Shown here piece after piece: positions 38,610 to 39,927 of a stretch of 64,000 nt of DNA; position 1 is the stretch's first letter, and each line of letters begins with the position of its first letter. The notes below the pieces were generated by a model. That model made no database searches. It was not told the origin of the DNA and was given only the letters and a program-made list of their open reading frames with translations. The position numbers and the translations under genes are program-made. The stretch is from Escherichia coli (GTDB taxonomy: Bacteria > Pseudomonadota > Gammaproteobacteria > Enterobacterales > Enterobacteriaceae), in the NCBI RefSeq assembly GCF_050920415.1, contig NZ_CP169310.1; one strand, 5' to 3'.

Positions 38610-39927
38610 TTGCAGCTCTGTATCCGGCCTTATTGCAGCCAGAGCTGCGGGCCACTATGAGATTCGCTGACCTGAGCCTTATTCTCCGTGCGGACTTGAT
38701 GTCCATGGGCCTATTCAGGTTTATCAGGTCACGGTCTTACCTGTCGTTGTCATCACATCGGCCGCCATAGCAACCTTTCAGCATTCACCCTTTTTAAGGT
38801 TTGATGTTTATCAGTCTCAGCAATTAATATGGTCTGATACTGACGTGATTCTTGTCGTATTTACGTCCGTGAGCAGCTATTGCCCACACTGTTCGTGCCA
38901 GCTTGTTTGCCATGGCGACGATTGCCACACTGGCCGGACGACGTTTTTTCAGTTCGGTTATCCACGGGCCTGGTTCTCTGGTCAGTAATGCTGCCGCCCT
39001 TGCTCCGTGGATAAACAATGTCCGGAGGTAGGGATCACCACGTTTACTTATCCCCAGCAGGCGGATTTTTCCTCCTGAGCCAGTCTGTCTGGGCACCAGA
39101 CCAACATAAGCCGCGAACTCTCGCCCTGATTTAAATGCAGATGCTTCCCCCATGGTGACCACCTCTGCCGTCGCAATAAGTGGTCCAATGCAGGGAATAT
39201 CCAGCAACCGTCTACAGGTCTCATTCTGCCTGGCCACACTGGTAAGCTGTTTTTCGATATCATCTATCAGTGAGTCCATCTCACTCAGTCTGTTGTACTG
39301 GTCTTCCAGCACCGTAATGAGATACGGTGGAAGTCTCTCTTTCATCCGCTCCAGTGCTTCAGGGAACTCCCGCTCCATCGCTGCCCGACCTTTGTGAATG
39401 CTTTCACCAAACTCCAGTAACGTCCCGTGCAGGGCATTAATTTGTGCGGTCCGGAACTTCACCAGTTGCCTGCGGGTCCGGTGCAGAACAAGAACTGACT
39501 GCTGTTCTTCTGTTTTGACGGCGATTTCTTTACCTGGCTGCTGAACTGCCATCCAGATAGCCCTGGCATCCATCACATCATTCTTATTGCCCATGACAAA
39601 TGCCTTAACGAAGCGGGCCTGCAACAATCGGACTTTATGACCCAGTTTTGTCAGTTCCCGGGCCCAGTGCTGAGAGCCTCCACAGGCTTTCATGCCAATC
39701 AGGCAAGGTTCGCGGTTACTAAAGAACGTCAGAAAATCTCTGCTGCGTAGTTGCTTATCCACCACTTCACCTGTGTGCTCATTGATGAAGTGAACCTGAA
39801 TCAGATGTTTTGCGATATCAACGCCAACCGGTGTATATTTTATTTGTTGAGTCTCCAGTCTGAGGGAGTCTTATGCATCCCGTATTGGACTATGATGCCG
39901 CAAATCTGCGAAGCTCCACACCTTCCT
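38610..39927 (-). mobile_element. IS110-family element copy B; transposase 38824-39843 with canonical ATG replaced by ATA
   Basis: protein colinear with split transposase of copy A; copy A start reads ATGAAATATACACC, here ATAAAATATACACC. Confidence 0.6.

Follow-up and report, generated by a model that had tools for sequence, protein, structure and literature searches.

A probably non-autonomous ISEc11-like insertion sequence with ATA in place of the transposase start codon on Escherichia coli plasmids

The stretch of Escherichia coli DNA analysed here, 64,000 nucleotides of contig NZ_CP169310.1 (assembly GCF_050920415.1) and hereafter called the window, carries two related copies of an insertion sequence (IS), copy A and copy B. 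The transposase gene of copy B opens with ATA where ATG is expected, which raises the question whether this copy can still move on its own. The original prediction was that copy B is probably non-autonomous, with copy A taken as the reference. That conclusion stands, but the reasoning behind it was incomplete, since the start codon alone does not carry it; stronger evidence comes from the replacements E52K, G218C, A227E and A229V and from an excess of nonsynonymous changes. Copy B is, in our view, very probably the relic of an ISEc11-like insertion sequence, decaying and no longer autonomous. The start codon is the least informative of its lesions, and it took a conservation analysis of the whole open reading frame (ORF) to settle the question. 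Both copies lie on the minus strand, which corrects the strand framing of the original prediction.

The start region of the copy B transposase gene consists of the following features.

38824..39843, minus strand: transposase ORF, 339 codons plus stop, open, with domains PF01548 (DEDD_Tnp_IS110) and PF02371 (Transposase_20)
39841..39843, minus strand: ATA at the transposase start position (M1I, derived from ATG); Met in 101 of 101 full-length homologues, and ATG in the same-site copy on plasmid pSTEC299_2 (copy L006)
39856..39853, minus strand: GGAG Shine-Dalgarno (SD) sequence, 9 nt upstream of ATA, with the same GGAG in all aligned copies

The plus strand reads TAT at 39841..39843, which gives ATA on the minus strand as the opening of ATAAAATATACACC (39843..39830). 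The counterpart in copy A is ATGAAATATACACC at 21441..21428 on the minus strand, with ATG at 21441..21439, and the predicted difference between the two copies is thus borne out at 39843..39841 and 21441..21439. In the window the 14-mer ATRAAATATACACC is found at exactly two places, where chance would give 0.09. The ATA opens a frame of 339 sense codons closed by a TAA stop (38826..38824, minus strand), and the GGAG 9 nt upstream identifies it as the native start of the gene. No ATG, GTG or TTG intervenes between the preceding in-frame stop and the ATA of copy B.

Could the true base nevertheless be that of an ATG, misread during sequencing or assembly? Over a region of 1,511 bp that includes copy B, 13 independent E. 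coli plasmid records from the USA, Japan and Tibet agree at 100% identity; their sources are ground beef, lettuce, human isolates (for GB089 the country is not given), Japanese cattle and a Tibetan pig. The ATA was searched for with a 34-mer, built so that every 28-base megablast seed spans the third base of the codon. It matched 27 records, comprising 18 plasmids with this same insertion and nine chromosomes, always at one place per genome. The plasmids come from different laboratories, countries and years, and in them the ATA is linked to a 2-bp deletion and a C to A change in the 5' untranslated region (UTR), to E52K and to G218C. Resequencing that shows ATG had been named as the result that would overturn the prediction; this check has effectively been answered in the negative by 18 independent assemblies with ATA. 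An error in the sequence was therefore rejected, and has practically no chance of being the explanation.

The direction of the change can be read from the relatives of copy B. An ATG followed by the same 30 downstream bases is found at 289 places in 212 E. coli genomes, with up to eight per genome, and nearly all homologues begin with MKYTPVGV or something very similar. On pSTEC299_2, the insertion found at this same site ahead of phd/yefM-relE is 96.4% identical and has ATG, as do chromosomal copies. Since Met1 is universal among the homologues and the copy at the same site has ATG, the ATA is derived, within one vertically inherited plasmid lineage. In all 18 carriers the ATA copy is a single copy at the same site, and the lineage has in common the 2-bp deletion and the C to A change, at position -5, in the 5' UTR.

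The nine chromosomal ATA matches were considered as possible evidence that the ATA copy had transposed. These are 200-bp remnants (L009, L010 and L011 at 2352-2553; E. coli chromosomes Eco889, O111:H8 7-58 72A, NCTC9113 and six others) that run from the left end to codon 17, where a CAGG microhomology marks their fusion with the right flank, and they lie between istA and istB of an IS21-family element. They are of a differing haplotype, with C at -5 and without the 2-bp UTR deletion. As internally deleted remnants on another haplotype they were rejected as evidence of transposition, and their ATA may represent an independent G to A change.

The protein itself was compared with 101 full-length homologues of 78-91% identity. 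The replacements at conserved positions are listed below.

39688..39690, minus strand: E52K (codon AAA), the second residue of the DEDD motif; Glu in 99 of 101 homologues and Lys in none of the 101
39190..39192, minus strand: G218C (codon TGC), in the IPGIG motif; Gly in 101 of 101, with IPGIG at the aligned position in IS621 and ISCro4
39157..39165, minus strand: A227E (GAG) and A229V (GTC), private to copy B; Ala in 100 of 101 at position 227 and in 101 of 101 at position 229
L189M: Leu in 100 of 101 homologues
T271P: Pro in none of the 101 homologues

L189M, G218C and T271P are changes of the ATA lineage. Across 5,426 E. coli genomes, K52 turns up only on the 18 plasmids with ATA, and on 13 of these in copy A as well. 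In the family alignment E52 is invariant, and the family profile aligns it to E60 of IS621, and D89 and D92 to D102 and D105 (with a chain numbering offset of +2). E60 of IS621 coordinates the catalytic Mg2+, and mutating D11, E60, D102, D105 or S241 abolishes recombination (PMC11208158). The gene of copy B is thus homologous to those encoding the DEDD plus Ser-Gly catalytic motif, but the motif is broken by a Lys at position 52.

Changes along the ORF were polarised strictly, requiring that the copies L006, L007 and L008 agree. The derived codon changes have a nonsynonymous to synonymous (N:S) ratio of 8:4 in the ATA clade versus 20:86 between two ATG lineages (Fisher p = 0.001). A cluster of changes at codons 125-142 belongs to the L006/L007 branch. 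Furthermore, one member of the clade, pOkiPb01695_1, has lost 16 bp and carries a frameshift flag. The ORF of the ATA lineage shows the pattern of a gene that drifts neutrally under relaxed constraint, and the frame is still open only because the clade is young (about 1-2% divergence).

Several observations weigh against decay as the explanation. The N:S comparison rests on 12 events only. The ORF of copy B is still fully open, and D9, D89, D92 and S256-G257 are all kept. The match of E52 to E60 comes from a weak-scoring N-terminal alignment, though it is consistent with the motif and accompanied by invariance within the family. Finally, initiation at AUA does take place at a low level, and RefSeq calls the gene intact. 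In E. coli, AUA initiates at 1-2% of the level of AUG, with a range of 0.02-3% depending on the construct (bioRxiv 10.1101/063800), and the ATA is by itself no proof of inactivity. The annotation by the Prokaryotic Genome Annotation Pipeline (PGAP) in RefSeq is a coding sequence at 38824..39843, WP_024166190.1, "IS110 family RNA-guided transposase", with an ATA start and no pseudogene flag. PGAP calls it intact because ATA is a permitted start in translation table 11; given K52, this annotation is misleading. Surveys that mine genomes for RNA-guided recombinases would pick up the protein of copy B with its broken active site.

These points lead to the proposal that the ATA is a functional, attenuated start, and that the element remains autonomous with very little transposase, for example to tame read-through from the promoter of the adjacent toxin-antitoxin (TA) genes. 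Apart from the low but real activity of AUA, it has in its favour that the SD sequence is intact and the ORF open, that a promoter-like site lies 19 nt upstream of the element with no terminator-like site on that strand, and that PGAP accepts the ATA. E52K and the replacements at invariant residues, however, speak against function, as does a near-neutral N:S of 8:4. In addition, the ATA copy is never present in more than one copy and never at a second site, and a sister plasmid is frameshifted. We consider this proposal improbable.

Rescue by another start codon was also envisaged by the original prediction, which left room for an internal GTG. The candidates are as follows.

39765..39763, minus strand: internal GTG at Val27, opening a 313-aa ORF (38824..39765) whose product is without residues 1-26, including Asp9
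39858..39856, minus strand: in-frame upstream CTG, without an SD sequence

An AGGTGA-like sequence lies a few nt upstream of the GTG, and CTG is a near-cognate start codon. The product from Val27 would, on the other hand, be without Asp9 and without strand one of the RuvC fold; the family alignment has D9 throughout, and mutation of the corresponding D11 of IS621 abolishes recombination (PMC11208158). The CTG initiates about as poorly as ATA. Either product would keep K52, C218, E227 and V229. Rescue from the GTG was rejected for the loss of Asp9, and a functional transposase from either alternative start is scarcely credible.

What kind of element copy B derives from follows from its ends. 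These were set by comparing occupied copies with differing flanks (L006, L007, L008, L013 and L014) with the empty site (L012, 1340-1365), of which 928 plasmids from Escherichia, Salmonella, Klebsiella and Shigella, pEQ2 among them, have an uninterrupted version.

38556..39989, minus strand: whole element, copy B, inserted at GCGGA^GGGCTTATG without target duplication; empty site in pEQ2
39970..39989, minus strand: left end, with a 7-bp extension GAATGAG and a 13-bp subterminal inverted repeat ATGAACGCCTCCC, from the sequence
38556..38571, minus strand: right end, with a subterminal inverted repeat GGGAGGCGTTCAT and a 3-bp extension ACA, from junctions and sequence

The element thus runs from 39989 to 38556 on the minus strand and is 1,434 bp long. 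Elements of the IS1111 group have subterminal repeats, with extensions of 7 bp on the left and 3 bp on the right, and a non-coding region downstream of the transposase gene (PMC11187229); the ends of copy B have the same 7-bp and 3-bp extensions. Comparison of the empty site GCGGAGGGCTTATG with the occupied site GCGGA/IS/GGGCTTATG (slashes mark element boundaries) reveals no target-site duplication. Junctions were compared in six independent copies, and similar target sites were found at four independent locations, so that insertion is orientation- and site-specific as in the IS1111 group. The circle junction expected for the element is ...GTTCATACA/GAATGAGATG....

The protein of copy B scores 322.2 bits against NF033542 (cut-off 140), which places it in the IS110 family in the broad sense; PF01548, which begins at residue 6, and PF02371 score 42.9 and 72.5 bits, respectively, both above gathering. 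The IS110-family assignment of the original prediction therefore holds at the broad level, and the finer assignment is to an ISEc11-like element of the IS1111 group, in which a seekRNA guides a DEDD/Ser transposase. The database cluster closest to the protein bears the name "IS110-like element ISEc11 family transposase". Against the ISfinder protein TnpEc11, also of 339 aa, copy B has 91.4% amino acid identity (310/339). Isoforms in ISfinder are by convention above about 95% amino acid identity. At 91.4%, and with the ISEc11 target GTGAAAATACTG absent from its flanks, copy B falls outside ISEc11 as an isoform. The TnpEc11 sequence was taken from the supplementary FASTA file of PMC11187229, and the comparison with the ISEc11 sequence was made at the protein level.

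Downstream of the transposase gene, copy B has a 3' non-coding region of about 268 nt, in which folding and alignment point to the core of a guide RNA (seekRNA).

38730..38669, minus strand: putative seekRNA core of 62 nt, with outer stem GACCTGA/TCAGGTC and guide loops AATAGGCCC and CACGGAGAAT

The corresponding outer stem in copy A (core 18956..19020) is GACTCGC/GCGAGTC, a compensatory change relative to copy B. The 5' loop AATAGGCCC shows complementarity with the right flank, and the guide complement GGGCCTAT has one mismatch to each of three flanks: GGGCTTAT at copy B, GTGCCTAT in IS21 and, for strain A20, GGCCCTAT. The sequence of the 3' loop, CACGGAGAAT, is that of the left flank continued into the end of the IS (...ACGGA/GAAT). 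In other copies the 3' guide loop covaries with the left flank. The L013 and L014 copies in IS21 (between istA and istB, core at about 1940-2010) have the flank CACTGA/GAAT and the loop CACTGAGAAT; the L008 copy has CAAGGA/GAAT and GTAAGGAGAAT; copy A has ...TTGGA and GCTGGGAGAAT. This covariation looks like natural retargeting of the putative seekRNA. In the published layout, a top-strand match lies 5' of a bottom-strand match and the two overlap in the target (PMC11187229). The layout of copy B, read here from DNA, agrees with this and is that of the IS1111 group. The set of elements is a clean natural illustration of the published seekRNA logic, in which a one-base change in the guide tracks a one-base change in the flank. 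A scan with Rfam, of the whole window at gathering thresholds and of 38400..40100 at E<=1, matched none of the element's non-coding regions; its only hits were isrN and ALIL, in neighbouring IS3-family elements. The seekRNA core of copy B is the same as in the ATG-bearing relatives; between this core and the right repeat, copy B has a private 1-nt deletion.

The insertion has separated a set of toxin-antitoxin genes from the sequence that presumably drives their expression.

38027..38549, minus strand: phd/yefM-relE (stbDE-type) toxin-antitoxin genes, directly downstream of the right end of the IS
40035..40008, minus strand: sigma-70-like promoter (TTAAGA, 16 nt, TG-TATTAT) with palindrome AGCACTTTTAAGAGTGCT, presumed to be the stbDE promoter; at empty sites this sequence immediately precedes stbD

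Copy B has landed within the Shine-Dalgarno sequence of the antitoxin gene stbD (phd/yefM) and points the same way as this gene, so that GGAGGG has become GGA/...ACA/GGG (38549..38558). The promoter-like site ends 19 nt upstream of the left end and reads into the IS, and no terminator-like site was found on the minus strand. The transposase frame is for this reason probably co-transcribed with the TA genes, as the first cistron of their operon. The insertion persists across about 4% sequence divergence among plasmids, and the simplest explanation is its linkage to an addictive TA module.

This arrangement might instead mean that the copy is kept for a host or plasmid function, as a leader that links the TA promoter to stbDE or as a dead, seekRNA-guided protein that binds its own target. 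The position and orientation of the IS between promoter-like site and TA genes would fit such a role, as would the conservation of the seekRNA region and ends within the clade and the persistence of the insertion. The near-neutral N:S ratio and the frameshifted clade member, however, speak against any selected protein function, the non-coding conservation is no greater than expected over so short a divergence, and persistence is explained by TA linkage. Retention for a function is in our judgement quite improbable. Highly improbable, too, is a more elaborate form of co-option, in which the dead but open ORF and the intact seekRNA would supply traces of an RNA-guided DNA-binding protein, or a structured leader, that modulates TA expression, with ATA and K52 selected to silence transposition.

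The history that we favour, decay of a once active element, would be as follows. An active ancestor would have inserted, guided by its seekRNA, at GCGGA^GGGCTTATG within the stbD ribosome-binding site on an IncX-type plasmid backbone, and the insertion would then have been inherited vertically with the TA module. In one sub-lineage, represented by 18 sequenced plasmids, the transposase gene would have gained the ATG to ATA change and E52K, with G218C, L189M and T271P as later replacements in the lineage and A227E and A229V in copy B. The ATA would lower initiation to about 1% or less, and K52 should kill catalysis of any protein that is made. Copy B combines the ATA start with E52K and the other lesions, and there is one copy per genome in the 18 carriers. 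In its ends, flanks and seekRNA core, copy B does not differ from the ATG relatives, save for the 1-nt deletion between seekRNA and right repeat. Mini-elements of ISEc11 can be mobilised by transposase and RNA provided in trans (PMC11187229). Because its ends, flanks and guide region look intact, copy B may likewise be mobilisable by a helper transposase in trans, though not by itself.

Copy A, the reference of the original prediction, provides an ATG but not an intact comparator.

18910..21577, minus strand: copy A, with ATG at 21441..21439 and also K52; both halves are pseudogenes in RefSeq

It has a 1-nt deletion near 21274 that shifts the frame, an IS3-family element of 1,306 bp (21015..19710, flanked by duplicated TTAC) divides it in two, and its right end is missing together with the inverted repeat. 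Copy A is thus worse off than copy B. From 18000 to 23500 the window matches E. coli plasmid pOkiPb01715_1 (NZ_AP042696.1, 223,921 bp) without any difference, and the coordinates coincide. Copies A and B are about 89-90% identical overall, with a common 5' patch of about 150 bp (21290..21441 versus 39690..39843) that is 96-99% identical, while the rest is about 85-92% identical. The K52 codon is common to A and B and otherwise unique. Patch and codon together suggest that gene conversion may have taken place between two dead copies on the plasmid. Copy A and its nested IS3-family element lie between a DotU-family gene (end at 18589) and tssK/tssJ (21958..23880), in a plasmid-borne type VI secretion cluster (17999..23880) that copy A may interrupt. 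The nested element contains an ALIL frameshift pseudoknot (Rfam, 121 bits, 20565..20681, minus strand).

Taken as a whole, the window is a graveyard of insertion sequences, among them fragments of IS256, IS3 and ISKra4. An IS3-family element adjoins copy B and has, antisense within it, an isrN Hfq-binding RNA (Rfam, 155 bits, 41067..41209, plus strand). IS256-family pseudogene fragments at 36481..37617 and 41553..42424 are direct repeats, 82-89% identical and about 4.8 kb apart, and bracket the block formed by stbDE, copy B and this IS3-family element. The block may be a composite or rearranged module. Further away, a direct repeat of at least 700 bp (9100..9799 and 57685..58383, 99-100% identical, 48.6 kb apart) presumably represents two copies of another IS.

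Among known systems, copy B is most readily compared with ISEc11 (Prosseda et al. 2006; Siddiquee et al. 2024, PMC11187229). Both have a 339-aa transposase of the DEDD/SG type, 91.4% identical in sequence, and their lengths are similar (1,434 bp for copy B versus 1,443 bp). They also have in common the subterminal inverted repeats with 7-bp and 3-bp extensions, the absence of target duplication, and a 3' non-coding region of about 270 nt with a seekRNA of one stem and two guide loops (PMC11187229). A -35 element, TTGCAA, lies near the right end and could form a junction promoter on the circle. The two elements differ in that copy B targets CGGA^GGGCYTAT-like sites, whereas ISEc11 targets GTGAAAATACTG, and the guide loops differ. 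Furthermore, copy B has ATA, K52 and other damaging replacements, and as judged from these should not move on its own.

IS621 and ISCro4 are bridge-RNA recombinases of the IS110 group with known structures (8WT6 and 9T56). Like copy B they have a RuvC-like DEDD domain and a Tnp domain with a catalytic Ser, and the motifs IxEA, NKxDxxDAR, IPGIG and SG align with copy B. It is the essential roles of D11, E60, D102, D105 and S241 in IS621 that make the lesions of copy B interpretable. The relationship is distant, with an E value of about 1e-9 that comes mainly from the C-terminal domain. In addition, IS621 lacks subterminal inverted repeats and has its guide RNA encoded 5' of the gene, whereas the RNA region of copy B is downstream, as in the IS1111 group.

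The closest parallel to the fate of copy B is found in the ordinary IS pseudogenes of IS-rich virulence plasmids. They have the same build-up of point lesions in a single, vertically inherited copy, and the neighbours of copy B are broken in other ways. Copy B is real, ordinary and already known biology, a textbook decaying copy of a well-characterised IS family. The sole difference from such pseudogenes is that automated annotation, in which table 11 allows ATA, calls its gene intact.

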